The notes: generated by a model from the sequence alone, not told the origin. 64,000 nucleotides of DNA from an uncultured Syntrophobacterales bacterium (GCA_964630405.1 CAZVUC010000056.1:8499-72498), one strand, 5' to 3'; positions 12,382-38,060 are shown, numbered from the stretch's first letter. Numbers and translations: made by a program.

Positions 12382-12418
12382 CCTGACGACTCCTCGCTGT
12401 GGTTTCGACCCATTCCGT

Positions 12419-12448
12419 AAGTTAGGAGCATGTTCCCCGGAATGTCAA
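12419..12448 (-). promoter_or_regulatory. Sigma70 promoter for fbp-fbaB
   Basis: Minus strand TTGACA-N18-TAACTT, about 40 nt upstream of the fbp ATG. Confidence 0.55.
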
Positions 12449-12581
12449 CGCCGGGCCGGAGTTCAGGCCTGACGGGCAGGATCGGCGGGGCTTGGGAAAG
12501 CAGAGGCCGGCATGCCGGGACGCCGGCCTCGTGGAGCAGGACATGCGCTCGGCCCCGAAGGCCGCGCGGGTGACGGCGCGC

Positions 12582-13493
12582 CTATGCCTTCGCGACCCTG
12601 GCGCCGGCGGTCAGGACTCCGAACTCCCTGAGTATCCGCGCCAGGTGCTCCTTGTGGGCTTCCGTCATGATCGGCAGCGGCGGCCGGACCGGCCCTCCGG
12701 CGAGACCGACCATGTCCATGCCGGCCTTCACCACCGCGGCGTGGCCGGCGGCCTTGCACAACATCCGGTACTCCGCCAGCCGCAGGTAGAGGGCCTGCGC
12801 CTCGTGCGCGTCGCCGCGGACGGCGGCATCGTAGATTTCCACCACCGACTCCGGCCAGAACGATGCGGTGGTGGCGGTGTTGCCGATCATGCCCAGGGCC
12901 AGGCATGTCCAGATCATCGACTCGGCGCCGCCGATGAGCGCCATCCTGTCAGCCGCCAGCGCCACCGTCTCGTCCAGCTCCACGGCGTTCTGCGACGCCT
13001 GCTTGATGCCGGCGACGCCATCGATTTCCGCCAGCTCCGCGATCATGGCAGGGCGCAGGCTGTAGCCCACGCGGGGCGGCGCGTTGTAGAGAAACACCGG
13101 CACCCCTACCTCGGCGATCCGCCGGAAGTGGTCGCGGATGCTGGCATCGTTCACGTTGTTGAAGTACGGCGGCGTGGCCATTACCGCATCGGCGCCCAGC
13201 TCCTTGGCGTAACGGGTCAACTCCACGGCCGCCACCGTGGCGGAATGCGACACGCCCAGCATGACGGGTTTGCGCCCCCGGTTGGTCTCGACGGCTATGC
13301 GCATGACCTCCAGGCGTTCCTCGTCCGTCACCGCGGCGAACTCTCCCTGGGTGCCGAGCACCACCAGCACGTGCGCCGAGCTGTCGGCGGCGAACGAGAC
13401 GTTGCGCGCCATCCCTTCCCCGTCGAGGGAGAGGTCGTCCTTGAACGGCGTCGTCAGGATCGTGTGAATCCCCTTCCACTTGTCGTGGTCCAT
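12582..13493 (-). CDS. DapA/NanA-family class I aldolase/lyase
   Basis: LGTQGEF, TPPYF, LYNAPPR and Schiff-base GIKQAS motifs. GTQGE instead of GTTGE suggests a catabolic paralogue. Confidence 0.85.
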   Translation of the reverse strand: MDHDKWKGIHTILTTPFKDDLSLDGEGMARNVSFAADSSAHVLVVLGTQGEFAAVTDEERLEVMRIAVETNRGRKPVMLGVSHSATVAAVELTRYAKELGADAVMATPPYFNNVNDASIRDHFRRIAEVGVPVFLYNAPPRVGYSLRPAMIAELAEIDGVAGIKQASQNAVELDETVALAADRMALIGGAESMIWTCLALGMIGNTATTASFWPESVVEIYDAAVRGDAHEAQALYLRLAEYRMLCKAAGHAAVVKAGMDMVGLAGGPVRPPLPIMTEAHKEHLARILREFGVLTAGARVAKA

Positions 13494-13706
13494 GTTTCCT
13501 CCCACTCTTTCTCGGAGTTTGGCGCGAATACGATTGAGTGAACGCTATATTGCTTCCCGCGGGTCTGTCAATACGGCTGCTCGAACGCTCGCGTCCCCGG
13601 CGATCCTTGACAACACGGGTCCCCTTGGATACCGAGAACGGATTACCCGAGATCGGACGAGGACGTGCTTCTCCGAGTCGGTTCATCACCAAAGGGGCGG
13701 TTGGAC

Positions 13707-14501
13707 ATGCCCAGCGACAAGTACACCGTCAGAGAGGTCCGCTATCCCAGCGGCGGCATCGACGTCAACGCGCTCCTGTTCGAGCCGGTGGGGGTGGAAC
13801 GGGCGCCGGCCGTCGTGCACCACCCGTCCCACAAGAGCCCGGCGAAACACTACGAATGGTATCTCGGCAAGTTCGCGGAGTCGGGATACGTCGGGCTGGG
13901 AATCGAGCAACGCGGATACGGCTCGGGGCCCGCGGGGGAGAACGACCGCGGCGGCCCGTTGCAGCAGGGCGACGTCGCCAACGGCATCACCTTTCTGAGC
14001 GGACTGCCGTCGGTGGACGCCGGCCGCATCGCGGTGAGCGGGCATTCCAACGGCGCCGCCCTGGCCCTGATCGTGAGCGCGAAGGACGAGCGCGTGAAAA
14101 CGTGCGTGAGCCTCGCCCCCAAGACGGACTGGGTCAAGGCCTTGCGGGGGGCCAGGGAATGGAAACCGGACTTCTACGATCTGACGGTCAGGGAGATGAC
14201 CGGCGGAGTCCCGCCGGAGATCGACCCGCGGCCCTTCATGGAACGCTCTCCCATCCACTATGCCGGGGACATCAAGGTGCCGGTGCTGTTCATCGTCGGC
14301 GCCCAGGACTGGGTCAACCCATCCTATCACTGCACGGACATGGCCCGCGCCCTCGAGCGCGCAGGCAACCGGGACGTATCCGTGGAGATCATCGACGAGG
14401 TGGAGCACTTCTTCTGCCGGCGGCACTTTCTCGGCTACCGCTTCGACGCCGTCACCGGGCCCGCCCTGCGCTGGCTCGACCGTTACGCCAAGGGAGCGTG
14501 A
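13707..14501 (+). CDS. Alpha/beta hydrolase (S9/dienelactone-hydrolase-like)
   Basis: RGYG oxyanion segment, GHSNG nucleophile elbow, GAQD and EH catalytic positions. Confidence 0.85.
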   Translation: MPSDKYTVREVRYPSGGIDVNALLFEPVGVERAPAVVHHPSHKSPAKHYEWYLGKFAESGYVGLGIEQRGYGSGPAGENDRGGPLQQGDVANGITFLSGLPSVDAGRIAVSGHSNGAALALIVSAKDERVKTCVSLAPKTDWVKALRGAREWKPDFYDLTVREMTGGVPPEIDPRPFMERSPIHYAGDIKVPVLFIVGAQDWVNPSYHCTDMARALERAGNRDVSVEIIDEVEHFFCRRHFLGYRFDAVTGPALRWLDRYAKGA

Positions 14502-14553
14502 CGGACCTCCACCGGCCGGCCATCACGCATCGACGCCAGGAAGGAACGTTCAG

Positions 14554-17466
14554 ATGAACGGCTCGCGCACCGAACCGATGGCACGCGTTTCCCTGACCCT
14601 CAACGGCAGGCCGGTGACGGCGGAGGTGCCGGCGCGCAAGACGTTGCTGGACGCTGTCCGCGAAGAGCTGGGCCAGACCGGCACCCACGCCGGCTGCGAG
14701 CACGGCGTGTGCGGCTGCTGCAACGTGCTGCTCGACGGCAAGGTGGTGCGCTCATGTCTCCTGCTGGCGGTCCAGGCGGACGGGCACGACATCCGGACGG
14801 TGGAAAGCCTGGGCTCCCCCGAACGGCTGGGGCCGCTCCAGCGGGCCTTTGCCGACAAGCACGCCATGCAGTGCGGCTACTGTACCCCGGGAATGATCAT
14901 GGCCGCCGCGGACCTGCTGGCCGCCAACCCGGACCCGGATGAGGCGGAGATCCGCACCGCCCTCTCGGGCAATCTCTGCCGCTGCACCGGCTACATGGAG
15001 ATCGTCGACGCGGTGAAGGATGCCGCGGGCAGGATCGCCCGGAGCGAGAGCGCGGTGGAAGAGCCCCCTGCCGTGCCCGCCGGCGCCGCCGGCGGCCCGT
15101 ACATCGGGCGGCGCATTCCGCCGGTGGAGGACCGCCGCTTCGTGGCCGGCAAGGGCGCCTACATCAACGACTTCACGGTGCCGGACCTGCTGCACATGGC
15201 CATGGTGCGCTCGCCCCACGCCCACGCCCGCATCCTGAGCATCAACACGAGCCGCGCCGAGGCCCATCCCGGAGTCGTGGCGGTGATCCTGGGAGCGATG
15301 CTCCCCGACGTCATGGACCCCGTGCCCCAGAACCTCGATATCCCCAATGTCGTCTGGTACCCGCTGGCGCTGGACAAGGTACGCTATGCGGGCGAGTGGG
15401 TAGCCGCGGTGGTGGCCGAGAACCGCTACGTCGCCGAGGACGCTGCCGAACTGGTGGAGGTGGAGTACCAGATGCTGGGGCCGGTGGTGGATCCCGAGGA
15501 AGCCATCCGGCCGGACGCCCCGGTGCTGCACGAGAAGCACGGCAGCAACATCGCCTACGAACGGGTGCTGACCTACGGCCCGGTGGACGAGACCATCGGC
15601 AAGGCGCGGCACGTGTTCGAGGAACGCTACCGCTGGAACCGCCACTCCGGCGTGCCGCTGGAGACCTTCGGCGCGGTGGCCCGGTGGGACGCGGGCCGGC
15701 AGGAGATGAGCCTCTGGGCCTCCCACCAGACCCCCAACATCGAGGAGCAGCTCGCCAAGGTGCTGCGGCTGCCCCTGAACCAGCTCCGGGTCCACCAGCA
15801 CCTGGACGTGGGTGGGAGCCACGGCGTCAAGCGCGGGCGCAAGCACATGTTTCTCACCGCCGCCGTGTGCCGCATGCTGGGCCGCCCGGTCAAGTTCATC
15901 GAGGACCGCCTGGAGAACATGAGCTCCGGCGACGGCCACGGACCGGACCGGGTCTACTACCTGCGCGCCGCCTGCGACGGCGACGGCCGCATCCAGGCAT
16001 TGGACATCCGCTGCATCGACGACGCCGGCGCCTACGCCGGCCGCGGCGCCATGCAGCTCATCAAGCCCATTACCGCCATCGTCGGCCCCTACCGAATCCC
16101 GGCCGTGCGCTATCACGCCATTTCGGCGCTGACGTCCAAGACCAACCAGTCGCCCTACCGGGGCTTCGGCCAGGCGCCCGCGGGTTACGTGCTGGAGCGC
16201 ATGGTGGACCTCATCGCCAGGGAACTCGGGATCGACCGGGCGGAGATCCGCTCGCGGAACTTCATCCAGCCCGACGAATTCCCGTACACCATCCCCACCG
16301 GGGCCGAGTACGACAGCGGCGACTACCCCGTGTGCCTGGAAAAGGCGCTGGCGGTCTCCCGCGCCGACACCTGGGAGCAGCGGCGCCGGGAGGCCCGGAA
16401 GCGCGGCAAGTGGCTCGGCTTCGGCCTCTCCACGGTCATCGAGCCCGGCGGCGGCACGGGCATGGTGTTCGCGGTCATGGGGCCGCAGATGGTGAACATG
16501 GACACCAACATGGAAGGCATCCGCGTCCACGTGGACGTCACCGGCATGATCACCGTCACCATCGGCTTCCAGTCCTGTGGCCAGGGCCACGAGACCACCA
16601 CCACGCAGCTCGCCTGCGATTTCTTCGGGGTCGCGCCGGACCGGGTCCGCATCGCCCGCGCCGACTCAATGGAGGGAATCGTCACCCGCGCCACCTCCGG
16701 CAACCGCCTGCACCTGATGCTGCCGCTGGCGTTGTTCAGCGCCGGCCGGAAGATCAAGGACAAGATGCAGGCCATCGCGGCCAACGCCCTGGAGGTTCCG
16801 GCGGAGCGCATCGAGCTCGCCGGCGGCATGTTCACCGACCGGGAGGACCCTGGGAAGAACGTGAGCTGGGACCAGGTGTGCTTCTACGCCTACCGCCGCG
16901 ACACGCTGCTCTCCCCCGGCATGGAGCCCGGGCTCATGGCCAACGCCATCGCCAAGCACCCGAGAGGGTTCGTGCCGCCGACCCCGGACGGCCGGGTCGC
17001 CGGGGGGTTCGCCACCTACACGTTCTCGGTGCACGTGCCGGTGGTGGAGGTGGACCCCGAGACCCTCGAGATCAAGCTGGTGGACTATTACGTGGTCCAC
17101 GACTGCGGCAAGGTCATCAATCCGCTGATGGTGGAAAGCTTCTGCTACGGCGGCGTGAACCTCGGCATCGGCGGGGCGCTCTACGAGCAGTTCAAGTACG
17201 ACGAGGACGGCCAGCTCCTGAGCCAGACCTTCATGGACTACCTCCTGCCCTCCACCATGGAGGTGCCGGAGATCGTGCTGGAGGAGCACGAGACCCCGGC
17301 CCCCGGCAACCCGGTGGGCGCCAAGGCCGCGGGCGAAAGCGGCTACATGCCCGCGCCCCCCGCCATCGTGAGCGCGGTGGAAGACGCCCTCCGGCACACC
17401 AACGTGCGCATCACGGACACGCCGGTCACGCCCGACATCCTGTTCGGGCTGGTGAACGGACGCTGA
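14554..17466 (+). CDS. Xanthine-dehydrogenase-family Mo-hydroxylase, fused [2Fe-2S] small and molybdopterin large subunits
   Basis: [11 protein letters not shown] and [14 protein letters not shown] Fe-S motifs, then a Moco domain with VGGSHG, PYRGFG, GQGHET and AKAAGE. Confidence 0.92.
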
Positions 17467-17482
17467 GGCGCAAGAGGCCGGG

Positions 17483-18349
17483 ATGAAACCGCCGATTTTC
17501 GACTACGTCATCGCCGAGAGCCAGGAACACGCGCTGGACGTGCTGCGCGAGCACGGCGACGAAGCCAAGGTGCTGGCCGGAGGCCAGAGCCTGGTTCCGT
17601 TGATGAGCTTCAGGCTGGCCAAGCCGGCCCTGCTGCTGGACATCAACCGGCTGGAAGGGCTTGGCTCCATAGCAGAGACCGACGGGCACATCCAAATCGG
17701 CGCGCTGACGCGGCAGTGCGAGCTGCTGACACACCCCCTGATGGCGGAGCATTGTCCGCTCGTGCGCGCGGCCGCGGAGTTCATCGGCCATCCCGCCATC
17801 CGCAACCGCGGCACCGTGGGCGGCAGCGTCGCCCACGCCGACCCCGCCGCGGAGTTGCCGGTCCTGCTTCAGGCACTCGACGCGGAGATCGAGGTGTGCT
17901 CCGCCGGGTCGCAAAGAACCATTCCCGCGGACGACTTCTTCATGGGCCCGCTGTGGACCGGCATGAACCCCGACGAGATGCTCACCGGCATCAGCTTCCG
18001 GCTGCCCTGGAAGGGCTCGGGCTGGGGCTTCCACGAGGTGGCGCGCCGCCACGGCGATTTCGCGCTGGTGGCCGCCGCGGCCCTGGTCACGCTGGACGAC
18101 GGGGGCGCGGTGGCCGGAGCCGCCGTGGCCCTGGGCGGCATCTCCGGCCGGCCGGTGCGGGTGGTCGCCGCCGAGGATGCGCTGAAGGGCAACCGGCCCA
18201 CGCCGGAAGCAATCGAAACCGCCTCGCACCTGGTCGACGGCTCGGTCACCCCCGTGGGCGACATCCACGCCAGCGAAGCATACCGCGCCCATCTTGGACG
18301 GGTGTTGACGAAGCGCGCCCTGCACGACGCCGTGGCACGGGCCAGATAA
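17483..18349 (+). CDS. Mo-hydroxylase FAD-binding medium subunit (CoxM/CutM type)
   Basis: KVLAGGQSL, IRNRGTVGGS.AHADPAAE and RRHGDFA motifs. Confidence 0.92.
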   Translation: MKPPIFDYVIAESQEHALDVLREHGDEAKVLAGGQSLVPLMSFRLAKPALLLDINRLEGLGSIAETDGHIQIGALTRQCELLTHPLMAEHCPLVRAAAEFIGHPAIRNRGTVGGSVAHADPAAELPVLLQALDAEIEVCSAGSQRTIPADDFFMGPLWTGMNPDEMLTGISFRLPWKGSGWGFHEVARRHGDFALVAAAALVTLDDGGAVAGAAVALGGISGRPVRVVAAEDALKGNRPTPEAIETASHLVDGSVTPVGDIHASEAYRAHLGRVLTKRALHDAVARAR

Positions 18350-18415
18350 ACACCACGAAACAGCCGGCCAACGACGGCAACCGTTGTTTGCGAAACCGCC
18401 TGAGACCCCCGCTTC

Positions 18416-18544
18416 CGTCATTCCCGCGAAAGGGGGAATGACGATTCGGGGGGCGTTACCTCTCTCGTATGGCGTTCGACACAGCCTGTTTCGCGGAAAT
18501 GACGGACGGGACTTTCCTGTATCCCGGATCAAGTCCGGGATGAC
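18416..18544. repeat. Cluster of REP-like palindromes (ATTCCC-N8-GGGAAT type and CCCGGATCAAGTCCGGG type)
   Basis: CGTCATTCCC-GCGAAAGG-GGGAATGACG at 18416-18443, a partial CGCGGAAATGACG near 18492, and TCCCGGATCAAGTCCGGGATGACG at 18522-18544. Confidence 0.75.
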
Positions 18545-19389
18545 GATTTGAGCAGTCCGAACGGCAGGTACCGCAGCGCGAGGCCGCCGAGGATCATCAC
18601 GCCGCCGATACAGGTGGCCAGGGACGGCACTTCCCCCACCCACAGCGCCACCAACAGCGGATTGAGCACCGGCTCCACCAGAGCGATCAGAGATGCTTCC
18701 TGCACCGATATGTGCTCGATGCTCCTGAAGAAGAAGAAGTGGGCAAACGCGAACTGGACGACCCCCAGACACGCCAGCGCCGCGAGCTGGGACACGGACA
18801 CGGAAAACGCGCCGTAGGCGAAACCGAGCAGGGCGACGGTCGAGACGAAGTTGTTGCTCAGCATCAACGCGAACGGGTCGAAGCCCCTGAGGGGGCGGAG
18901 GTTGAGGAAGTAGACCCCGAGCATGAACCCGCTGCCAAGGCCCACGGAAACACCCAGGAGGTCCCGCGCGCCCGCGGCCCCGCCGAATATGATCAGGATG
19001 CCGGTGGTGCCGAAGAGCAGCGTGACCAGGTTGGCGCGCGTGGGACGCTCGCGGAACAGCAGGAACACCAGCACGCAGACGAACACCGGGGCGGTGTTCT
19101 GCAGCACGATGGCGTTGGCGGCGGTGGTGAGTTTCGTAGCCCACACCAGCGAGCCCGTGGCCGCGGTGAAGGCCAGGCCGGAGAACAGGAGCCGCGGCCT
19201 CGGGCGCCATCGCCGGGTCCCGGCAAACGGGACGAAGAAGAGCATGGCGAACAGGCTTCGGTAAAAGGCGATGACCGCGGCGGGAAGCGCCAGCGACTTG
19301 ATGAAGACGCCGGCCAGGCTCCAGCAGAATGCGGAGAGCAGCGCGAAGAGTCTGCACCGATTGATCGAGGAGCGGGATGCGTGTTCCAT
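18529..19389 (-). CDS. EamA/DMT-family transporter
   Basis: About 10 hydrophobic segments with TTAANAIVLQNTAPVFV and LVEPVLNPLL motifs. Confidence 0.88.
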   Translation of the reverse strand: MEHASRSSINRCRLFALLSAFCWSLAGVFIKSLALPAAVIAFYRSLFAMLFFVPFAGTRRWRPRPRLLFSGLAFTAATGSLVWATKLTTAANAIVLQNTAPVFVCVLVFLLFRERPTRANLVTLLFGTTGILIIFGGAAGARDLLGVSVGLGSGFMLGVYFLNLRPLRGFDPFALMLSNNFVSTVALLGFAYGAFSVSVSQLAALACLGVVQFAFAHFFFFRSIEHISVQEASLIALVEPVLNPLLVALWVGEVPSLATCIGGVMILGGLALRYLPFGLLKSSSRT

Positions 19390-19429
19390 GGCGCGGTTCT
19401 TTGCGGACCTGGGCGGAGGACGGCGCGCT

Positions 19430-20782
19430 CTAGGAATCCTTCTTGGGTAGACCGGACTCGGTGAGACCCGGCAGGATGACCTCGTCACGCTGCGCCATCG
19501 GCACGGTAGCGTCTATCCCCACCTTCACCACCTGTTCGCTCGATGGGTCCCGGGAGGCGTCGATGCGGGAGCCGAGGCCCTGATCCAGGGTGATCTGCTC
19601 CGGCCGTCCCACCCGTGTCGCCTGGGCCCACTCCACCTGGGCCGGGTCGCGAATATCGATGTCATCGTCCACGATCACCACGCGCTTGAGGTATCCGTAG
19701 GCGCCGAACAGGCCCTCTATGAGCCGGCGCGGCATGCCGTCGTCCAGCTTGCGCAGGGACGCCACCGCATGGAAATTGCGCCCGGCGGGCGGAAAGTGGA
19801 CGTCGTAGGCGGCGCCCAGGTCGAGGCCCAGGACCCTTGCCCGCCCCGCGGCCTGGTAGTCGTGCCAGAAATCGTTGTTGCGTGACTTGAAGTGCTCCCG
19901 GGAATTGAACCCCAGCACGGTATGGTAGATGGGGTCGCGCCGCGTGGTGATGGCGGAGACTTCCACCACCGGCTGTTGTCCGGCCGAAGTCACCTGTCCC
20001 GTAATGTCGGCGAAAGGACCTTCGAACCGCGTCCGGTCCGGGCTGATCCGGCCTTCGATGACGATCTCGGCATGAGCCGGCACCTCCAGGTCCACGGTCA
20101 GGGCCGGCACCACCTCCAAGGGCCGCCTCAGCAGCGCTCCGGCCACACCGAGCTCGTCGGCCCGCGGACCCACCGGCCAGAATGCCGCGACGAACAGCGC
20201 CGGGTCGACGCCGATGCACACGGCGACGTCGACGCCGCGCCCCGCGGCCTGTGCGTCGCCCAAGACCCTGTGGCCGTCGTGGAAGCGGTTGGTCATGACG
20301 GTAAGTTCATGTGGACCATGAATCTGGATACGGTAAATGCCTGCATTCCTTCGTTTTCCATCGTCGGTAATCACGACGCCCGAGGTGATGTAGGGTCCGC
20401 CGTCGCCGGGAAAGTGCGTGGGTATCGGAAGCTGTTCCAGTCCCAATTCGGGAGCGAACCGGACTTCCTGGCACCCCCCATAAACGCCACGTCGGGGAGC
20501 GACCGGGCGGGCGATGGCCCCTTCCAGCCGCTGCGCGAACTCGGCCATGCTGCTCATGCGCAGACCAAGAAGGTGGCGCCGGGTGTTGCCGTACAGACCC
20601 GCGGCCACCGGGATGCTGTGCCCCCGGACCGCACGGAACAGGAACGCCTTGTTGTCTCCGCGTTCGCTGGCGTCGACGTGAGCGGCGAGCTCGTGTACCA
20701 GCAAGACGGGCTGCTTCACCTCGATCAGCTCACCCTGTTCTTTCAGCCGGCTCAGAAACCAGCGGAAGCCCACATCCGCCAT
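19430..20782 (-). CDS. UbiD-family prFMN-dependent decarboxylase
   Basis: PIPTHFPGDGGPYITSG, NAGIYR, VPAHAEIVIEG, EGPFADITG, IVDDDIDI and KVGIDAT motifs. GGAGGAG RBS. Confidence 0.9.
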   Translation of the reverse strand: MADVGFRWFLSRLKEQGELIEVKQPVLLVHELAAHVDASERGDNKAFLFRAVRGHSIPVAAGLYGNTRRHLLGLRMSSMAEFAQRLEGAIARPVAPRRGVYGGCQEVRFAPELGLEQLPIPTHFPGDGGPYITSGVVITDDGKRRNAGIYRIQIHGPHELTVMTNRFHDGHRVLGDAQAAGRGVDVAVCIGVDPALFVAAFWPVGPRADELGVAGALLRRPLEVVPALTVDLEVPAHAEIVIEGRISPDRTRFEGPFADITGQVTSAGQQPVVEVSAITTRRDPIYHTVLGFNSREHFKSRNNDFWHDYQAAGRARVLGLDLGAAYDVHFPPAGRNFHAVASLRKLDDGMPRRLIEGLFGAYGYLKRVVIVDDDIDIRDPAQVEWAQATRVGRPEQITLDQGLGSRIDASRDPSSEQVVKVGIDATVPMAQRDEVILPGLTESGLPKKDS

Positions 20783-20882
20783 GACTCCTCCGTGGCTCCT
20801 CACCTATCACACGGATGTTTCGGCGGATAGCGCCTGCTCCTGCCGCCTTCCAAAATCACCGCCGCCGCCGCATAATGCGGCC

Positions 20883-22301
20883 ATGAAGGAGCTTGCCTTT
20901 ACGTCGGTTCACGAGCTGGCGCGCCTGACAAGGACGCGCCAAGTCTCGCCGCGCGAACTCGTCGTCCTGTTCCTCGAACGCATCGCCCGGTTCGATCCCA
21001 CCCTGAACGCCTACCTCACGGTGAACGAGGAAGAAGCGAGACGGACCGCCACGGAGGCCGAGACGGCAGCCATGCGAATCGACCGTTTGCCGCCGCTCTT
21101 CGGAATACCGGTAGCCGTCAAGGACCTGGAGTTCACCCGGGGACTCCGGAGCACGGGCGGCTCCCTGGCCTACCGGGAACACGTGCCCTCGGAAGACTCC
21201 ATCGTGGTGGAACGGCTGCGAAACGCGGGGGCCATTGTACTGGGGAAGACGAACACGCCCGAATTCGGCTCCTACGGCCAGACCTGGAACCGGCTGAGCG
21301 AAGACTGCCGCACCCCCTGGGACACGGCCCGGACCTCGGGGGGCTCCAGCGGCGGCAGCGCGGCCGCGGTGGCGGCCGGCCTGGCGCCTGTCGCGACCGG
21401 CACCGACGGGGCCGGTTCCATCAGGGCGCCCGCCGCCTTCTGCGGCGTGTACGGCTTCAAGCCGAGCTTCGGACGGATCCCCATGCACGGCGGGTTCCTG
21501 GGGCTTCCACTCCACACCTGCCCCGGACCGCTGACCCGATCGGTCCGGGACGCCGCCCTCATGCTCTCGGTGCTGTGCGGCCACGACCCCCGGGACCCCA
21601 ACTCCACGCGGCAGCCGCCACCGGATTTTCTCGGGGCGCTGAGCCGTCCGGTCCAGGACCTGCGCGTCGCCTGGAGCCCGAATCTCGGGTTCGCTCACGT
21701 CGATGCCGAAACCCGGAACCTGGCGGAAGCGGCGGCGAAGACCCTGGAAACCTCGGGCTGCCGGCTGGAGGCCGAAGACCCGCCCGTCGACGCCGACCTC
21801 TTCGAGGTGGCGGACCCGGTCCGGAACGCGGACAAGTACGCCGCCTGGGGACACTTGCTCAGGAACCGCCCCGGCGATTTGACGCCCTACGTCCGGTCGG
21901 TGCTGGAACGCGGAAGCCGGGTCACCGGCGAGGAATATTCCAATTCGCTCCGGGAGCTGGAGCGCCTCAATCACAGGATGGCGGACTTCTTCGAGCGATA
22001 CGACGTGCTGCTGACGCCGACGACCCCGGTTCCAGCCTATCCGGTAAGACAACCCCCGAAGACGATCGAGGGTTTCGAGGTGCCCCATTACGCCAGCACG
22101 ACGCTGCTGACGATTTTATGGAACCTCACCGGCCAGCCCGCCGCCTCCCTGCCCTGCGGGCTGACGGAGAAGGGCTTGCCCGTGGGGTTGCAGATCATCG
22201 GCCGCGGTGGCGACGACGCGACGGTGCTTCGGGCCTCCCGGGCGTTGGAGCAGGCGAGGCCCTGGCCCGCTGGGGTTCGGATACAAGGCCACGCACCCTG
22301 A
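20883..22301 (+). CDS. Amidase-signature family hydrolase
   Basis: VAVKDL, GKTNTPEFG, GGSSGGSAAAVAAG, TDGAGSIR and LPVGLQI motifs. Confidence 0.92.
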   Translation: MKELAFTSVHELARLTRTRQVSPRELVVLFLERIARFDPTLNAYLTVNEEEARRTATEAETAAMRIDRLPPLFGIPVAVKDLEFTRGLRSTGGSLAYREHVPSEDSIVVERLRNAGAIVLGKTNTPEFGSYGQTWNRLSEDCRTPWDTARTSGGSSGGSAAAVAAGLAPVATGTDGAGSIRAPAAFCGVYGFKPSFGRIPMHGGFLGLPLHTCPGPLTRSVRDAALMLSVLCGHDPRDPNSTRQPPPDFLGALSRPVQDLRVAWSPNLGFAHVDAETRNLAEAAAKTLETSGCRLEAEDPPVDADLFEVADPVRNADKYAAWGHLLRNRPGDLTPYVRSVLERGSRVTGEEYSNSLRELERLNHRMADFFERYDVLLTPTTPVPAYPVRQPPKTIEGFEVPHYASTTLLTILWNLTGQPAASLPCGLTEKGLPVGLQIIGRGGDDATVLRASRALEQARPWPAGVRIQGHAP

Positions 22302-22305
22302 ACGC

Positions 22306-22339
22306 AACGCCGGAGAAATGCATGCATTTCCCCGGCGTT
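22306..22339. terminator. Near-perfect palindrome between convergent genes (probable bidirectional terminator)
   Basis: AACGCCGGAGAAATGCA|TGCATTTCCCCGGCGTT; U-tracts are weak. Confidence 0.55.
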
Positions 22340-22410
22340 CCGGCCGACCGCCGCGCCGGATCGCACCTCCGAAGCGACGGGGTTCGTCCGGCGCGGCCTA
22401 TCGACAATAC

Positions 22411-23415
22411 TTACGGCACGAACAGACCGTCGATATGAGCCTCCGCCTCCTTGGGGAAAATCCCCAGGGCGATGCCGTCTTTCAGGTACTGTTTCTGATT
22501 CGCCAGGTTCTTCGGGTTCGGCCACTTGAAGTCAGCCGGAAGCAGGAAAGGCCTCACCCGCTTGTAGCCGAGGTCGACGACGTCCTTCCCCTCCAGCCCG
22601 AAGATCTTCTTGGCGTACTTCGCGAAGTGTTCAGGGTCATTCTGTACGCCGGCGATCATATCCTGCCACGCGGCGCGAATCTTGCCGACGACTCCGGGGT
22701 TCTTCTTCGCCCAGGCTTCCTGCGCTCCGACCCAGCCGAACATGTGGATGTCCTTGTTCAGCACCTTGGTGATCACGTCTCCCAGCTTCGCGATGGAGCG
22801 GTATTTCCCCGTGGCCATCATCCGGGTGACGTGCGCTTCCCAGTGGAGCGCGGCTTCCACCTCGCCCTTCTCCATCACCGCGATGATGCCGGCGGCGCCC
22901 AGCTTCTTGAGCTCGAAGTCCTTCTCGATGGAGACACCCTGCTTCCGCATCATGAAGTCGAACAGGTTGTAGGCCGAGGTGACTTCCCGCGGCACGGCGA
23001 TGGACTTCCCCTTGAGGTCGGCGATGGACTTGTAAGGGGAATCCTTGCGGACCAGGATGTAGTTGTGCATCGTCCGCATGTAAGGCTGCACCAGTTTGAG
23101 CGGAATGCCCTTCATGTTGGCGCGCAGGGCAGACTCCACGGTGGCCAGACCCACCGGAATGGCGCCGATGGCGATGAGACGCTCGACGTTGGCCACGCCG
23201 CCCCAGCGGGGCTTGGCGACAAAGCCGTGCTTGCGGTCGAGCTTCTTGTCGATCATGTACTGGCCGCCCAGGCCGAAGACGCCGCCGGAAGGCAAGCCGA
23301 ACTCCACCACGGGCAGATCCGCGCTCAGGGCCGGCACCGAGAGGCCCGGACCCAACAGGAACAGCCCCGCGGCCAGGACCAGCAGACGAAACCGTTTGAT
23401 TCTCGCGATCATCAT
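22411..23415 (-). CDS. ABC substrate-binding protein (SsuA/TauA/NMT1-like)
   Basis: Signal peptide, SIADLKGKSIAV, GEVEAALHWE; downstream of the ATPase and permease. Confidence 0.85.
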   Translation of the reverse strand: MMIARIKRFRLLVLAAGLFLLGPGLSVPALSADLPVVEFGLPSGGVFGLGGQYMIDKKLDRKHGFVAKPRWGGVANVERLIAIGAIPVGLATVESALRANMKGIPLKLVQPYMRTMHNYILVRKDSPYKSIADLKGKSIAVPREVTSAYNLFDFMMRKQGVSIEKDFELKKLGAAGIIAVMEKGEVEAALHWEAHVTRMMATGKYRSIAKLGDVITKVLNKDIHMFGWVGAQEAWAKKNPGVVGKIRAAWQDMIAGVQNDPEHFAKYAKKIFGLEGKDVVDLGYKRVRPFLLPADFKWPNPKNLANQKQYLKDGIALGIFPKEAEAHIDGLFVP

Positions 23416-24185
23416 GCTTCCTCCTTCACCAGGTTGAGTATGGTTTCCAGCACTTCCTTCTTGAACTCGATGAACCGCATGTCGTCGGTATCCCGCTCCG
23501 ATGACTTCAGGGGGTTCTCGTAGACCGCGGCGATGCGCGCCGGCCGGGCGGAGAATATCACGATCCGGTCTCCCATGTAGGCCGACTCCTCGACGTCGTG
23601 GGTCACCAGCAAGGCGGTCTGCTTCAACCGGGAGCAGATCTGGAGCGTGTCTTCCCGCAACTGCCGCGCCGTGAGCTGGTCGAGCTTGCTGTAGGGCTCG
23701 TCCATCAGCAGCACCTGCGGCTCGATCACAAGCCCGCGCGCCAGACCCACGCGTTGCCGCATGCCGCCGGACAGGTACAGGGGGTACTGCTTGCGGAAGT
23801 CCGTCAGGCCCACCAGCGACAGGTACTTGTCCAGCCGCTCGTCCCACTCGTCCGCCGGCACGTCCATGCCCCTGAGAGCGAATTTCAGGTTGTCCTCCAC
23901 CCGCTTCCAGTTGAGCAGCCTCGGGTCCTGGAACACGTAGCCCAACTGCGGGTGTGCCTGCCCATCGTCCTCGCTCTCCGAAATGATCTCCACCCGCCCG
24001 TGGTCGAGGCGTTCGAGTCCGGTGATGATGTTCAATAGCGTCGACTTGCCGCAGCCCGACGGGCCCAGAAGCGCCGTGATGCCGTATTCCTTCGTGTCGA
24101 AGGAGATGCCGTCCAACACCTTCAGCGGCGAGCCGTCCTCGCGGGAAAAGAACTTGACCGCTTCGTCAATCCGTACGTAGGCCAA
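23412..24185 (-). CDS. ABC ATP-binding protein (NitT/TauB type)
   Basis: Walker A GPSGCGKS, LSGGMRQR, Walker B LLMDEP, H-loop VTHD. TTG start after GGAGGAG. Confidence 0.92.
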   Translation of the reverse strand: MAYVRIDEAVKFFSREDGSPLKVLDGISFDTKEYGITALLGPSGCGKSTLLNIITGLERLDHGRVEIISESEDDGQAHPQLGYVFQDPRLLNWKRVEDNLKFALRGMDVPADEWDERLDKYLSLVGLTDFRKQYPLYLSGGMRQRVGLARGLVIEPQVLLMDEPYSKLDQLTARQLREDTLQICSRLKQTALLVTHDVEESAYMGDRIVIFSARPARIAAVYENPLKSSERDTDDMRFIEFKKEVLETILNLVKEEA

Positions 24186-24186
24186 C

Positions 24187-25041
24187 CTATCTCCTCCAGG
24201 CCTCGACGCGCGGCCGCCAGCGTGTGACGCTGCGCTCCAGGACGCCGACCACACCGAACTCGAGAAAGATCATCACGATCAGGAACGTGATGGCCCAGGC
24301 CAGCACCCCTTTCACCGAGAAGAGGTCGAACTGGTGCATGACCTGATAGCCGACGCCGTTGCTGAAGCCGAACCCTTCGACCAGCACGATCACCTTCCAC
24401 GCCAACCCCAGGCCGTATCGGATGGCGGCGAGGATATGCGACACCAACTGCGGCAGGATCACGTCCACCAGCTTGGAATACACGCTGGCGTGAAACGCCG
24501 TACTCATGTCGATCAGATCCTTGTCGATCGACTTGGTCCCCTGCCAGATGCTGATGGTGAGCATGGGAGAGATGGTCACGGCCACCGCGAGGTAGGCGCT
24601 GACCTCCTTGATGCCGAAAACCATGATCATCAAGAGCGCCCAGATGAGGCCCGGCATGGTGAGACCCAGGATCACCGGAGGCTCGAAGAAGCTTTCCTGG
24701 TTCCTGAAGCTCCCCATGATAATCCCAAGGGGCGTGCTGATCACCATGGCAAGGCCGAATCCGACGAACACGCGCCAAAGCGTGTTGCCCATGTGGTGAT
24801 ACAGTTCCCCCGACTTGATGATGACGCCTACTTCCCCGAACGTTTCCCACGGCCTCGGCACCAGGGCCGGCGGAAAGAAAAGACTCATCCCCCACCATGC
24901 AAGGACGAGCGCCAAGATGGAGCCCACGCGGAGAGAGACGTCCCAGCCGGCCTCGGTAAAGACGGAAGAGGTTTTCCGGGGCCCTCTGAGGGGTTCCGTG
25001 TCGGGTGTCGGGACGAGCGTCAGCTCCTCCTGTTTCGCCAT
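24187..25041 (-). CDS. ABC permease (NitT/TauC type)
   Basis: TM segments, an EAA-like loop (IDKDLIDMSTAF), LGLAWKVIVLVE. Confidence 0.9.
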   Translation of the reverse strand: MAKQEELTLVPTPDTEPLRGPRKTSSVFTEAGWDVSLRVGSILALVLAWWGMSLFFPPALVPRPWETFGEVGVIIKSGELYHHMGNTLWRVFVGFGLAMVISTPLGIIMGSFRNQESFFEPPVILGLTMPGLIWALLMIMVFGIKEVSAYLAVAVTISPMLTISIWQGTKSIDKDLIDMSTAFHASVYSKLVDVILPQLVSHILAAIRYGLGLAWKVIVLVEGFGFSNGVGYQVMHQFDLFSVKGVLAWAITFLIVMIFLEFGVVGVLERSVTRWRPRVEAWRR

Positions 25042-25169
25042 GGATGATGTCTCCTGATACGAACGACCGAATTCGCCGCCAAGCGGCCGATGTTAGTCGA
25101 TGGCATTGGTGGCTGTCAAATGAACTTCCCCCGGGCCTTTCACCCGTCATCGGGTTATGGAGGCGCCCC

Positions 25170-26018
25170 TCAGGTGACCCAGAGCTGGTCGGCCGGGAGC
25201 CCGATGGCGGCCCGGGCCAGCCGGACCTGCTCCCTGGTCGTAATCACCCGAAAGGACCGCGCCGTCTTGATGGCCCAGAAGGTCTCCTCCTGAATCTCCC
25301 GGGTGGTGGCGTATTTCTTGAGGATGTCCAGCACGCCGCCGCCGTGGAGCTGGTCCTTGGCCTGGTGGAGGCCGGCATTCATCAGGGAACCGTGCGGTAT
25401 GCCGCACAGCTTCTCCACGGTGTTGGCGCTGGCCGCCCAAGGGCCCTCGAACTCGCCCTTGTCGAGATATCCGCGCTTGACCGCCACCCGGATGCTTTCC
25501 AGGCCGCCGATGGCGGCGAAGCCGCCCTGCCACGTCAGGGTACGGCTCAGGTTGTCCAGCGCGTGCATGCAGGCCATGAAGACCGGCGTCGGCTCGAACG
25601 CCTCCGCTTCCTCACGGGTGATGCCGAGCTGCCGGGAGTCGTGGTACAGCACCTCGATGTGGCACATGCCGTCGGCGTCCGGATCGGTCACCTCCTCGTC
25701 CCAGCAATCGTGCAGAATCTCGCGGCGGACGTCCTGGTAGGGGCACCTGGCGGCGATGTTCATCAGATAGCTGGGAAACATCTTGGCGAAGAAGCTGTGG
25801 TTCATCTGCCACACGCCGAAGTATCGCTTGGCCTTTTCAGGGTCGCTCCGGACCTCGTCGGGTATGGGCGGATGATTATGGTAGGTCCGCACGACGTCGG
25901 CCTGTGCCTGCAGGAACCGCCCTTCGTACTCCTCCGGGGAGAGAGGCGGGCCATCCGCCTCCGGAGGAACCCTGAAATAGGTCTTGGTGGTAATGACATC
26001 CGCTTGAGTATCCGCCAT
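25170..26018 (-). CDS. CADD/PqqC-like heme-oxygenase-like diiron oxidase (HDO)
   Basis: DEE...HIEVL, GGLES and H-x3-D-x2-H (HQAKDQLH) match the six-ligand CADD-type dimetal pattern. Confidence 0.75.
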   Translation of the reverse strand: MADTQADVITTKTYFRVPPEADGPPLSPEEYEGRFLQAQADVVRTYHNHPPIPDEVRSDPEKAKRYFGVWQMNHSFFAKMFPSYLMNIAARCPYQDVRREILHDCWDEEVTDPDADGMCHIEVLYHDSRQLGITREEAEAFEPTPVFMACMHALDNLSRTLTWQGGFAAIGGLESIRVAVKRGYLDKGEFEGPWAASANTVEKLCGIPHGSLMNAGLHQAKDQLHGGGVLDILKKYATTREIQEETFWAIKTARSFRVITTREQVRLARAAIGLPADQLWVT

Positions 26019-26138
26019 CGTTACCCCTCCTTGTTTCCAAACATGCCGGCGCCATCGGCTTGTCCCGGCGGTATCAGAACGGCTGTAGCGTGTCAACGAA
26101 GGCGCCGGGGACGCTGCCGCGCACTTTACTCCGCATGT

Positions 26139-26154
26139 GGGTATTGATATACCC
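26139..26154. promoter_or_regulatory. Palindromic operator candidate in the divergent HDO/Rieske promoter region
   Basis: GGGTAT-TGAT-ATACCC, 45 nt upstream of the Rieske ATG. A minus-strand TTGACA also lies at 26091-26096. Confidence 0.4.
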
Positions 26155-26199
26155 GCTGCCGAATCGTCCCGAGTCAGGTCCCCAACGAGGAGGATCGTC

Positions 26200-27381
26200 A
26201 TGCGAAGCGCCTACGGTCTCAAGATTCCCGAGATAGACCCCGAGCTCACCCGGGTGGGGCCGGGCACGCCGTGCGGCGAATTGATGCGGCGGTACTGGCA
26301 GCCGGTCTGCCTGTCGGCCGACCTGACCGACCTGCCCAAGCGCATCCGCATCCTCGGCGAGGACCTGATCGCCTTCCGGGACGGAAAGGGACGCGCCGGG
26401 CTGCTGTTCTTCCGTTGCAGCCACCGGGGCACCTCGCTGGAATACGGGCGGGTGGAACGGGACGGGCTCCGCTGCTGCTATCACGGCTGGCTCTACGACG
26501 TGGAAGGCCGCATCCTCGACATGCCGCTGGAGCCGCCCGAGAGCACTGTCAAGGACCACCTCTGGCACCCCGCCTACCCGGTGCAGGAGTTCGGCGGGCT
26601 GCTGTTCGCCTACATGGGTCCCCTGGACAAGATGCCGCTTCTGCCCCGCTATGACGTGCTGCAGGCGGAAGGGGGCACGCTGAAGCCGCGCTTCGGCCCC
26701 CGCGTGGGCGGCGCCCAGGACTGCAACTGGCTGCAGAGCGAGGAGAACCTCATGGACGCGCTCCATGCGGTGTGGCTGCACACGGTCCACAGCGGAGCCC
26801 AGTTCCCCACCCAGGCCCATTCGACGCTGCCGGAAAAGCTGGCCTACGAGGAGACCGACATCGGCATGCGATTCATCATGACCCGGAAGCTCGACGACGG
26901 GCGCTGGGCCGACGTCATCTGGGAGAACATCATGCCGCTCAACGTGCACCTGACCTACACGGACGAGCCGGTGACGGAGAAGGTGAACCAGGTGTCCTTC
27001 TGCGTTCCCGTGGACGATACCCACCAGCTCGGCGCCAACATCCGGTGGATTCCGGACGGCGCCGACCCGTCGGAGCTGTCGGGTCGCGAGAAGCTCGCCC
27101 CCGCGGGCCGGGGACCCCGGGACTACGAATACAGCCAGCGCTACCCCGACGACAAGGAGGCCCAGGAGGGCCAGGGCGAAATCGTGATCCACGCCATGGA
27201 ACGTCACGTGAGCTCGGACGAGGGCGTGCTGCTGTTCCGGAAGATCCTCAAGACCGCCATCGACGACGTCAAGGCCGGCAGGGACCCCAAGGGGATCATC
27301 AGGGATCCCGACCGGGCCGCATGCGTGCCCACCACCGCGGGAGCGATCGTGCACGCGGCCCGGCCCGCCCACGTGGCCTGA
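26200..27381 (+). CDS. Rieske non-heme iron oxygenase large subunit (phthalate 4,5-dioxygenase-like)
   Basis: CSH...CCYH Rieske ligands, ENLMDALHAVWLH Fe site and C-terminal SDEG. GAGGAGG RBS. Confidence 0.92.
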   Translation: MRSAYGLKIPEIDPELTRVGPGTPCGELMRRYWQPVCLSADLTDLPKRIRILGEDLIAFRDGKGRAGLLFFRCSHRGTSLEYGRVERDGLRCCYHGWLYDVEGRILDMPLEPPESTVKDHLWHPAYPVQEFGGLLFAYMGPLDKMPLLPRYDVLQAEGGTLKPRFGPRVGGAQDCNWLQSEENLMDALHAVWLHTVHSGAQFPTQAHSTLPEKLAYEETDIGMRFIMTRKLDDGRWADVIWENIMPLNVHLTYTDEPVTEKVNQVSFCVPVDDTHQLGANIRWIPDGADPSELSGREKLAPAGRGPRDYEYSQRYPDDKEAQEGQGEIVIHAMERHVSSDEGVLLFRKILKTAIDDVKAGRDPKGIIRDPDRAACVPTTAGAIVHAARPAHVA

Positions 27382-27412: not shown

Positions 27413-28567
27413 TCAGGCCCTGCCCGTCTCGGGGTCCAGGCCGTAGAAGCGGGCGACGTTGTCCACCAGCAGCTTCCGCTTGGTGTCCTCGCCGATGTCC
27501 GTGCGCTTCAGAAAGACGCTGACCGAGTCCACCAGCCGGTCGCCGTGCGGGATGTCGGAGCCGTAGAGCCAGCACTCGTCGCCGAACTCCTCGACGGCGA
27601 ACGGCAGGAGCCGCTCATCCACCTCGAAGCCGAAGTAGACCTGGCCCCGGCGGATGTACTCCTCCGGTTTGTGTCTGCCCAGATAGCCGCGGTTGAAATC
27701 CGCTCCGGCCCGGGCGTGGCCGAGGCCGCTGTAGTCCGCCACCCGCTCCACCACCGCCGGCACCCACGAACAGCCGGCCTCCAGGAAGGCGATGCGGAGG
27801 TCGGGATAGCGGTCGGCGATTCCCTTGGAGATGACCCGCTGGAACGCGAACTGCACCGTGAGCCAGAAAGCCATGCTGGTCTTGTCGTGATGCGTGTCGC
27901 AGACCTCGCCCAGGGCGCGGAAGCTGTGGCCGGTATGCACCGCCACCGGCAGACCGGCGGCCGCCGCGGCCTCCCAGACGGGCTCCATGGAATCGTCGTC
28001 CACCCGGTGGTGGCCGGTCATGCCCAGCATCATCACGCCCACCGAGCCCATCTCCTTGGTGCGCTGAACCTCCCGCGCGGATGCCTCGGGATCGATGGGG
28101 TCGATGATGGTGACCCACTTGAGCCGTTCCGGCGCCTGGCCGGTCATGTCCGCGATCCAGTTGTTGTAGGCCCGCATCATGGCCACGGACAGCTCCCGGT
28201 CGAAGGTAATCGGGTAGGAAAGGAACATGGTGGGATAGATCACCTGGAGCTGGGTGTTCTCCCGGTCCAGTTGCTCGAGGCGGGCCGCCACCGTGCGCAG
28301 CTCGGCGCTCTCCACCGGGTCCGCCGCGTTGATGCCCGGCGTGACCGCCGCCGGCCGGCCGTCCTTGCTCAGCGGGAAACCGGCCTGCTGGTACGGCCCG
28401 GTCCGGACCGGGAACGCCCGGGTGTCGATCAGCCAGCGCAGCGCCCGGTCCGGACCGATCTCGATCACCTCCGGCCTGCGGGACCGGAGATCGGCGTGCC
28501 AATACTTGTCGGAGAATGTGACCTCGGACTCGGAAACGTGTCCGTCCGCATCCCACGCCTTGATCAT
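27413..28567 (-). CDS. Amidohydrolase_2 family protein
   Basis: WDADGHV, AVHTG, AFLEAGCSWVP and GSDIPHGD motifs. Confidence 0.88.
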   Translation of the reverse strand: MIKAWDADGHVSESEVTFSDKYWHADLRSRRPEVIEIGPDRALRWLIDTRAFPVRTGPYQQAGFPLSKDGRPAAVTPGINAADPVESAELRTVAARLEQLDRENTQLQVIYPTMFLSYPITFDRELSVAMMRAYNNWIADMTGQAPERLKWVTIIDPIDPEASAREVQRTKEMGSVGVMMLGMTGHHRVDDDSMEPVWEAAAAAGLPVAVHTGHSFRALGEVCDTHHDKTSMAFWLTVQFAFQRVISKGIADRYPDLRIAFLEAGCSWVPAVVERVADYSGLGHARAGADFNRGYLGRHKPEEYIRRGQVYFGFEVDERLLPFAVEEFGDECWLYGSDIPHGDRLVDSVSVFLKRTDIGEDTKRKLLVDNVARFYGLDPETGRA

Positions 28568-32418: not shown

Positions 32419-33723
32419 ATGCTGACCAGGGAAGACAACGAGATACTGACGAGGGTGGGCCCGGGCACGCCCATGGGCGAGCTGATGCGGCGCTATTGGG
32501 TGCCGGTGGTGCTTTCAGCCGAACTGGAAGCGGGGGGCCGGACCAAGCGGGTGCGCATCCTGGGCGAGGACATGGTGGCCTTCCGCACCGCCGGGGGGGA
32601 GGCCGGGCTGCTCGGCGAGTATTGCTCGCACCGGCGCGTGTCGCTCTATTTCGGCCGGGTGGAGAAGGACGGCCTTCGCTGCTGCTACCACGGCTGGAAG
32701 TACGGGCTCGACGGCCGCTGCCTGGAGATGCCCAACGAGGCGCCGGAAACGGACTTCAAGCACGCCGTGAGGCATCCCGCCTACCCCTGCCGCGAGCACG
32801 GCGGCATCGTGTGGGCGTTCATGGGCGATCCCGCCCACGTCACCGAGGTGCCCGACTTCGAATGGCTGGGTTTGCCCGACAATCAACGATTCATCTCAAA
32901 ATACTACCAGGACAGCAATTACTTTCAGGCCCTGGAGGGCGGCATCGATTCCAGCCACATCTCGTTCCTGCACGCGCCGTTGGACACCGCGGACCAGGCT
33001 TCCCTCGAAAACATCGAGAAGGCCGGATTCGGCGTGGACACGGCGGTGGGGACCTCGGACCGGAGCCCCCGGTTCGAGGTGGTGGACACGGACTACGGGG
33101 TGATGATCGGCGCCCGCCGCAACGCCGAAGGCGAGCGCTACTACTGGCGCATCACCCAGTTCATCATGCCCTTCTACACCATGCCGCCGCCCCAGGACGA
33201 GGATCCGATCCTGCACTCCCACGCCTGGGTTCCGGCCGACGACGGGCACCTGATCAACTGGACCATCACCTGGCACCCGACGCGGCCCCTCAAGGAAGAG
33301 GAACTGGTGTCGCTCAACACCGGCTTCAGCGCCCACATCACGGAGTACGGACCGCCCGCCAACGGCCCGTACGGCGATGTTCGCCCGGCGGCCACACGAG
33401 CCGCCGACTACGGCATGGACTGGGACGCGCACCGCACGCGCATGTTCTGCGGCATCCCCGGTTTCGGCATGCAGGACCGCGCCATGACCGAAAGCCAGGG
33501 CCCGATCTTCGACCGGACCCTCGAACGGCTGGGCACCAGCGACACCGCCATCATCCAGGTTCGCAAGTGCCTCATCGATTCGGCGAAGATGCTGCGGCAG
33601 GAGCACGCCGACCCGCCGGGACTGGATCCGAGGCTTCACCACATCCGCGCCGCCTCGGTGCGATTGCCCAAGGACGCCGTGTGGGTGGAGGCGGTGAAGG
33701 AGCGGGTGCATATCGCATCGTAG
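32419..33723 (+). CDS. Rieske oxygenase large subunit (phthalate 4,5-dioxygenase/LigX-like)
   Basis: LTRVGPGTPMGELMRRYW, CSH..CCYH, EGGIDSSHISFLH, QDRAMTESQG and LGTSD motifs. Confidence 0.93.
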   Translation: MLTREDNEILTRVGPGTPMGELMRRYWVPVVLSAELEAGGRTKRVRILGEDMVAFRTAGGEAGLLGEYCSHRRVSLYFGRVEKDGLRCCYHGWKYGLDGRCLEMPNEAPETDFKHAVRHPAYPCREHGGIVWAFMGDPAHVTEVPDFEWLGLPDNQRFISKYYQDSNYFQALEGGIDSSHISFLHAPLDTADQASLENIEKAGFGVDTAVGTSDRSPRFEVVDTDYGVMIGARRNAEGERYYWRITQFIMPFYTMPPPQDEDPILHSHAWVPADDGHLINWTITWHPTRPLKEEELVSLNTGFSAHITEYGPPANGPYGDVRPAATRAADYGMDWDAHRTRMFCGIPGFGMQDRAMTESQGPIFDRTLERLGTSDTAIIQVRKCLIDSAKMLRQEHADPPGLDPRLHHIRAASVRLPKDAVWVEAVKERVHIAS

Positions 33724-38009: not shown

Positions 38010-38060
38010 CAAAGCACTCCTCTCCCACCCGGTTTGCTCGGAGCCGCCATGACCGAACAT

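Follow-up and report, generated by a model that had tools for sequence, protein, structure and literature searches.

A candidate catabolic heme-oxygenase-like diiron oxidase encoded divergently from a Rieske oxygenase in an uncultured bacterium

Heme-oxygenase-like diiron oxidases (HDOs) are represented by about a dozen characterized enzymes, and a 2026 review places all of them in natural-product or cofactor synthesis. UndA, BesC, and other substrate-oxidizing HDOs have in common with the protein discussed here the fold and the idea of a 3-His/3-carboxylate metal site; their substrates are free carboxylic or amino acids, a class of compound also proposed in this work. The closest characterized relative by sequence of the protein discussed here is CADD (CT610), the 4-aminobenzoate synthase known from Chlamydia trachomatis and Nitrosomonas europaea (PDB 1rcw, 8va9, and 9pj4). 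In the case of MboA, the partner protein MboB is a reductase and not an oxygenase. This work concerns an HDO gene in a DNA stretch of 64,000 nucleotides, the window, from an uncultured Syntrophobacterales bacterium (GCA_964630405.1 CAZVUC010000056.1:8499-72498), where it lies divergent from a Rieske oxygenase gene and is followed by the genes of an ATP-binding cassette (ABC) importer. The window belongs to contig C56 of a 3.47-Mb genome that is 93% complete and whose closest relatives are metagenome-assembled genomes labelled Candidatus Binatia. The best reading, to which a probability of roughly 0.55 is assigned, is that the protein would be a catabolic HDO with an imported organic acid as its substrate. 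The literature searched contained no description of a catabolic HDO or of the pairing of an HDO with a Rieske oxygenase, and a catabolic role, if true, would be without precedent among the characterized enzymes. The main interest is the catabolic setting of a small HDO subfamily, together with an expansion of HDOs at the level of the order, rather than the operon that was first drawn at this locus.

The HDO is matched by the Pfam family PF14518 at an E-value of 5.9e-9, while PF03070 is barely at its cut-off (22.6 vs 22 bits) and covers only the N-terminal half of the protein. The 3-His/3-carboxylate ligand set consists of E108, H120, E174, H218, D222, and H225. An alignment of 21 relatives, with identities down to 38%, shows that five of these residues (E108, H120, H218, D222, and H225) are invariant and that E174 is at least 90% conserved. 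HMMER and profile alignments place the motifs DEE...H, E, and H-x3-D-x2-H on CADD residues E81, H88, E142, H174, D178, and H181, which bears out the statement in a preliminary description of the locus that all six CADD-type ligands are kept. The same 21 sequences feature the additional invariant residues C92, R98, C105, K221, and W248, which are specific to the subfamily. The AlphaFold2 model is all-helical (pLDDT 87, pTM 0.84), and Foldseek returned SSO2700, PqqC, CADD, UndA, and BesC with a probability of 1.00; these structures and TenA, which was also matched, are all at most 21% identical to the HDO. A search of the PDB with the HDO family profile at E-values up to 10 retrieved only SSO2700 (3e-7) and the CADD-type para-aminobenzoate (pABA) synthases (4e-6 and 2e-3). 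TenA, PqqC, UndA, and SznF did not reach an E-value of 10 in this search, and BesC likewise gave no sequence match at that threshold. The PqqC model TIGR02111 did not match the HDO at an E-value of 0.001, and no gene of the genome reaches the 240-bit cut-off of that model. The preliminary description had considered that the protein might cluster with TenA or true PqqC enzymes; the conserved six ligands and the lack of a TenA or PqqC match in the profile searches indicate that it is neither. In the ESM Atlas the HDO falls only among generic "iron-containing redox enzyme" clusters. The protein is very probably a true metal-binding HDO, in which the six ligands would bind two Fe(II) ions (or Fe/Mn) for reaction with O2, and the candidate reactions are hydroxylation, desaturation, oxidative decarboxylation, and C-C cleavage.

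The best match of the HDO by fold (Foldseek E-value of 4e-6) as well as by profile is SSO2700 from Sulfolobus solfataricus (PDB 4lqx), which has a PF14518-type architecture. However, the two proteins are 17–18% identical, and the leading His of H-x3-D-x2-H does not fall on a His of SSO2700. SSO2700 is a structural-genomics protein of unknown function and thus gives no functional lead for the HDO. CADD is the best characterized sequence match, although a weak one (E-value of 1.6e-4 with the single sequence, about 20% identity). CADD and the HDO feature the same fold, the same six ligand positions, and an FP-YL...RC...DEE...H block, which would fit a CADD-type self-sacrificing pABA synthase that serves folate synthesis. 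However, the HDO scores 20.1 bits with the NCBIfam CADD model TIGR04305, for which the cut-off is 200. There is no conserved residue opposite the sacrificial Lys152 of CADD, where the stretch is variable, and the alignable core begins after CADD Tyr27. The context is one of uptake and degradation and not of folate synthesis; as initially reported, the genes annotated at 10.4–42 kb included no pqq or folate gene. Additionally, the orthologue was not found in 5 of the 20 sampled species of its genus. A pABA synthase of the CADD type is very improbable on this evidence.

The HDO subfamily is small. The HDO profile matched 174 of 1.84 billion representative proteins at an E-value of 0.001, and 16 at 1e-30. 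An orthologue search of GTDB species genomes, with eight candidates scored per genome, found the HDO in 15 of the 20 sampled species of one Binatia genus, and did not find it in 280 other genomes of the class or in 300 others of a phylum sample. Metagenomes add two sister clades, one with 59–68% identity that is mostly from soil and one with 37–46% identity, and the metagenome scan supplied the gene context of these distant relatives. In the 59–68% clade the gene order is TctC, HDO, and short-chain dehydrogenase/reductase (SDR); the gap between TctC and HDO is mostly 50–100 nt and the gap between HDO and SDR is 3–83 nt, mostly 9–23 nt. The HDO genes of the clade at about 40% identity are found next to genes for a cytochrome P450, an SDR, a BphC-type extradiol dioxygenase, Rieske alpha subunits of another subfamily, TetR regulators, a PNPOx-like protein, a GMC oxidoreductase, a DHDPS-type aldolase, and an Amidohydro_2 protein. 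Rieske genes of that other subfamily occur only occasionally in the sister clades. When the relatives are collapsed into clusters at 80% identity, the immediate neighbor of the HDO is an SDR in 6 of 21 clusters and a P450 in 6 of 21.

The setting of the HDO subfamily is catabolic or related to uptake in three clades and never biosynthetic. Since the HDOs covered by the review are all biosynthetic or cofactor enzymes, the protein could instead be biosynthetic and produce a small secondary metabolite. This alternative is improbable: genes for non-ribosomal peptide synthetases, polyketide synthases, ATP-grasp enzymes, or other biosynthetic enzymes were not seen around about 80 related HDO loci, and the neighbors are binding proteins, SDRs, P450s, ring-cleaving dioxygenases, decarboxylases, and TetR regulators. 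UndA and BesC, which are biosynthetic, differ in this respect from the uptake and degradation clusters found here. A catabolic role is fairly probable, and the HDO would then serve breakdown and not natural-product synthesis. With its consistent ties to solute receptors, SDRs, P450s, and enzymes that cleave rings, the subfamily would bring the HDO superfamily into carbon catabolism.

The synteny survey suggested in the preliminary description was done on 19 loci of the genus, from 18 genomes and one metagenome contig, in which the HDOs are 82–99% identical. The divergent Rieske-HDO pair is present in 19/19 of these loci, even though the genes downstream of the HDO vary. The Rieske protein contains the Rieske domain PF00355 (E-value of 3e-15), and its three closest solved relatives are RO_CH34, phthalate 4,5-dioxygenase, and isophthalate dioxygenase (E-values of 6e-46 to 5e-39). 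The sequence D-A-L-H-A-V-W-L-H aligns to D178/H181/H186 of RO_CH34 and phthalate dioxygenase, so that the bridging Asp and the H-x4-H motif are kept, and a candidate for the third iron ligand, an Asp, is found within the D317-D318 pair. Judged from these similarities, the Rieske protein is a member of the benzene-dicarboxylate dioxygenase clade; its substrate is probably a different one. The window resembles the phthalate and isophthalate dioxygenase systems (PDO_KF1 and IPDO) in this oxygenase and in the TctC genes that the HDO relatives carry; however, the reductase, dihydrodiol dehydrogenase, and decarboxylase of phthalate operons are not present here. We know of no phthalate operon that contains an HDO. 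Reductase or ferredoxin genes were not seen among the genes annotated at 10–42 kb; an electron donor would be required by the HDO as well. The Rieske oxygenase would probably act in the same pathway as the HDO, though a partnership of the two enzymes is possible at somewhat below even odds.

The substrate of the HDO is read as an acid because of the closest solved relatives of the Rieske protein and because of the TctC genes nearby. TctC receptors are carboxylate binders, and TctC-type receptors of Comamonas serve the uptake of isophthalate and terephthalate. In the genus survey, a TctC-type receptor gene follows the HDO directly or follows the ABC set in 8/19 loci, and the paralogous HDO genes of the genome also adjoin TctC, UbiD, and bicupin genes. 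On this reading, the HDO would oxidize a small organic acid that enters the cell through binding-protein-dependent uptake. The HDO would be a small, soluble, and defined target in the search for new diiron chemistry, and the nearby binding proteins offer a direct route to the substrate.

The layout of the locus is given in Table 1. The gene set for permease, ATPase, and binding protein follows the HDO on the same strand, as was first reported. The importer proteins match the Pfam families PF00528 (permease), PF00005 (ATPase), and PF09084 (binding protein), which identifies a NitT/TauT-type system. Among NCBIfam models, SsuC/TauC, SaoA/TauB, and the SsuA family come closest, and none of the scores reaches an equivalog cut-off. 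The binding protein is nearest to the SsuA and TauA structures (E-values of 4e-8 to 1e-4).

Table 1. Coordinates of the genes and sequence elements of the HDO locus, counted from the first nucleotide of the window.
Feature	Position	Strand	Size	Remarks
HDO (PF14518)	25170-26018	-	282 aa	Pfam assignment
Divergent control region	26019-26199	.	181 nt	HDO/Rieske gap
Rieske non-heme iron oxygenase alpha subunit	26200-27381	+	393 aa	phthalate/isophthalate-dioxygenase clade
Rieske-side conserved block CTTTAC-N17-TGnTATAYC	26124-26153	+		promoter-like
HDO-side conserved TTGACA box	26096-26091	-		promoter-like
Palindrome GGGTAT-TGAT-ATACCC	26139-26154		16 bp	6-N4-6; overlaps the Rieske -10
HDO/permease gap	25042-25169	-	128 nt	
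TTGACA-18-TAACAT	25119-25090	-		promoter-like, in the HDO/permease gap
Importer gene set	22411-25041	-		permease, ATPase, and binding protein
ABC permease, NitT/TauT type (SsuC/TauC-like)	24187-25041	-	284 aa	variable-cassette member
ABC ATPase	23412-24254 (open reading frame)	-		probable start ~24185, overlapping the permease stop
Periplasmic binding protein, NMT1/SsuA family	22411-23433	-	340 aa	N-terminal signal peptide
Amidohydro_2 gene	27413-28567	-		converges on the Rieske gene
Variable cassette region, HDO to FBPase	11389-25169		~13 kb	
Further Rieske alpha subunit	32419-33723			
Further Rieske alpha subunit	36843-38060			

The HDO had been described as heading an ABC importer operon, and this holds for local gene adjacency only. 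The ABC set is present in 14/19 genus loci, and a set of the type found in the window was not seen around HDO relatives outside the genus. In some genus loci a TctC binding protein takes the place of the set or accompanies it, and the HDO is followed directly by the FBPase gene in one genome (L026) and by an EamA gene in another. The varying content downstream of the HDO indicates that the importer is one optional insert of a cassette region. This variable region extends from the HDO to the FBPase gene (L009-L026 and L043) and in the window includes the ABC set, an amidase, UbiD, EamA, a molybdenum hydroxylase, and a DHDPS-family gene. No terminator-like site was found in the gap between the HDO and permease genes; the promoter-like site in this gap means that a single HDO-importer operon is not established. 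Five similar loci outside the genus feature an NMT1-type binding protein upstream of the HDO that is not detectably similar to that of the window (E-value threshold of 1e-8). The importer, preceded by a promoter-like site of its own, is an accessory cassette outside the conserved unit; it may supply the substrate in this strain. That it delivers the substrate of the HDO is a tentative suggestion, with the odds against it. The initial proposal of an uncharacterized catabolic HDO acting on an imported substrate thus keeps its ligand-complete HDO and its catabolic or uptake context in three clades, and its importer link is a local one.

The gene order of a TenA-like protein, permease, ATPase, and NMT1/THI5 binding protein is one that we take to resemble the tenA-thiXYZ salvage operon of Bacillus. 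With the marginal PF03070 match and a binding protein of the NMT1/THI5 family, it would fit a TenA-like thiaminase II that functions with a ThiXYZ-like pyrimidine importer in thiamine salvage. However, the six conserved metal ligands of the HDO are not needed by TenA, no TenA structure was retrieved by the profile at E-values up to 10, and the binding protein has SsuA and TauA as its nearest structures, with no ThiY structure matched at an E-value of 0.001. An Rfam scan of 18–33 kb gave no match of any family, including the thiamine pyrophosphate riboswitch, and the ABC set is dispensable in relatives. Thiamine salvage is extremely unlikely.

The control region between the two divergent genes has the length of 181 nt given in the preliminary description, and it contains the 16-bp palindrome noted there. 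The expected number of such 6+4+6 repeats in 181 nt by chance is about 0.4, according to our own estimate. In 14 orthologous regions only one arm, which overlaps the TGnTATAYC sequence, is invariant, and the other arm drifts without compensating changes. The palindrome was therefore rejected as a conserved operator. The Rieske-side block and the HDO-side TTGACA box are conserved, and their arrangement suggests a pair of promoters placed back to back more than an operator, although an operator overlapping the Rieske -10 may still exist. The HDO start codon is preceded by AGGAGG 8 nt ahead of the ATG, and a good ribosome-binding site is also found on the Rieske side.

The reading of the protein as a catabolic HDO of an acid-degrading pathway has to be set against several observations that count against it. 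The first Glu and His of the ligand set are spaced E-x11-H in the HDO and E-x6-H in CADD, which corresponds to five extra residues in the HDO. Phthalate 4,5-dioxygenase binds the carboxylate through Arg207 and Arg244. Opposite Arg244 (the Arg244/Arg233 position) the Rieske protein appears to have Val, in a poorly aligned stretch, so that an equivalent of Arg244 is apparently missing and an aromatic dicarboxylate is not indicated as the substrate. The ABC set is missing in 5/19 genus loci. The Rieske pairing holds without exception in close relatives alone and could therefore reflect shared descent; outside the genus the window-type Rieske protein gives weak and scattered matches only. Among the HDO loci of the genome, a Rieske gene lies within 5 kb of 2/11, which is no enrichment (P = 0.07 vs random placement). 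A complete 4.46-Mb genome from another family of the order (G338) contains 93 Rieske-domain genes, and adjacency of Rieske and HDO genes in that genome is thus near chance. Coupling of Rieske and HDO genes among the paralogues of this genome and of G338 was rejected as not above chance.

These points bear on the alternative that the genes are mere neighbors, in which the HDO, the Rieske oxygenase, and the ABC importer belong to separate pathways of a gene-dense catabolic island and the true partners of the HDO, TctC and SDR, are lost or located elsewhere. The variable downstream content (ABC set, TctC, EamA, or FBPase directly), the promoter-like site ahead of the permease, and the absence of an enriched Rieske-HDO link among the paralogues are consistent with it, as is the abundance of such genes in the genome, which contains 90 Amidohydro_2, 33 UbiD, 28 NMT1 binding protein, and 18 Rieske genes. 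However, the divergent pair is kept in every genus locus in spite of the changes downstream, and both promoter-like blocks of the shared intergenic region are conserved. Additionally, Rieske alpha subunits of another subfamily adjoin distant members of the HDO family at five loci (L047, L080, L093, L094, and L096). Mere neighborhood is unlikely, if by no means negligible, and the catabolic HDO with an acid substrate is retained as the preferred reading.

The genome features 13 copies of PF14518 HDO genes, and all of the encoded proteins keep the five clearly aligned ligands; the column of E174 is gapped in six of them. It also contains 24 TctC genes. TctC lies within 5 kb of 4/11 HDO loci (P ~0.002 vs random placement), and the same count was found for UbiD (P ~0.013). 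A recurring module consists of TctC, one or two HDO genes, and a bicupin gene with two Cupin_2 domains, and is found at C84:13960-16846 (L104), C55:11040-15800 (L110), and C87:18753-23433 (L112). On C55 and C87 a UbiD gene is located at most 2 kb from this module. Other genes near the bicupin modules encode a DHDPS-type aldolase, a CoA-transferase, or a thioesterase. SznF is a fused HDO-cupin enzyme, and the separate HDO and cupin genes of the module recall it.

Nine relatives of the same order contain 5–33 PF14518 genes per genome, compared to 0–6 in the other orders of the class. The G338 genome contains 25 HDO genes, which are found among Rieske, bicupin, molybdenum hydroxylase, UbiD, and Amidohydro_2 genes. 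This expansion suggests that HDOs are important for the feeding of an uncultured, partly sponge-associated lineage. A broader and doubtful proposal is that HDOs would be a major catabolic oxygenase class, overlooked to date, in one Binatia order, set among TctC receptors, UbiD decarboxylases, and bicupin and Rieske dioxygenases. The HDO of the window would be a branch of this class that acts in an O2-dependent manner on an imported aromatic or alicyclic acid. The step in that case may be, for example, oxidative decarboxylation, desaturation, or C-C cleavage of a ring or side chain.

The amidohydrolase gene does converge on the Rieske gene, as had been reported, and an Amidohydro_2 gene is present in 14/19 genus loci. 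The best solved relative of the encoded protein is PtmU3 (E-value of 5e-22), with LigW/ACMSD-type decarboxylases behind it. PtmU3 is a non-heme diiron monooxygenase built on an amidohydrolase fold. With 90 paralogues in the genome the gene is uninformative and was rejected as a pathway clue. Farther out, the window contains an amidase, a UbiD decarboxylase, an EamA exporter, a molybdenum hydroxylase, a four-domain rhodanese, an SDR, several TctC receptors, and two more Rieske oxygenases. Of the three Rieske alpha subunits in the window, two are VanA_C-like and one is LigXa-like.

Two of the proteins matched by the HDO profile, both distant relatives, are natural tandem HDO-HDO fusions, P0059 (523 aa) and P0103 (547 aa). 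The genome has a parallel to them in its tandem pairs of HDO genes at C35 and C55. There are hints that HDO modules move between genomes. A phage-type integrase and an IS110 transposase adjoin some distant HDO members (L053:4142-5404 and L085:19-1242).

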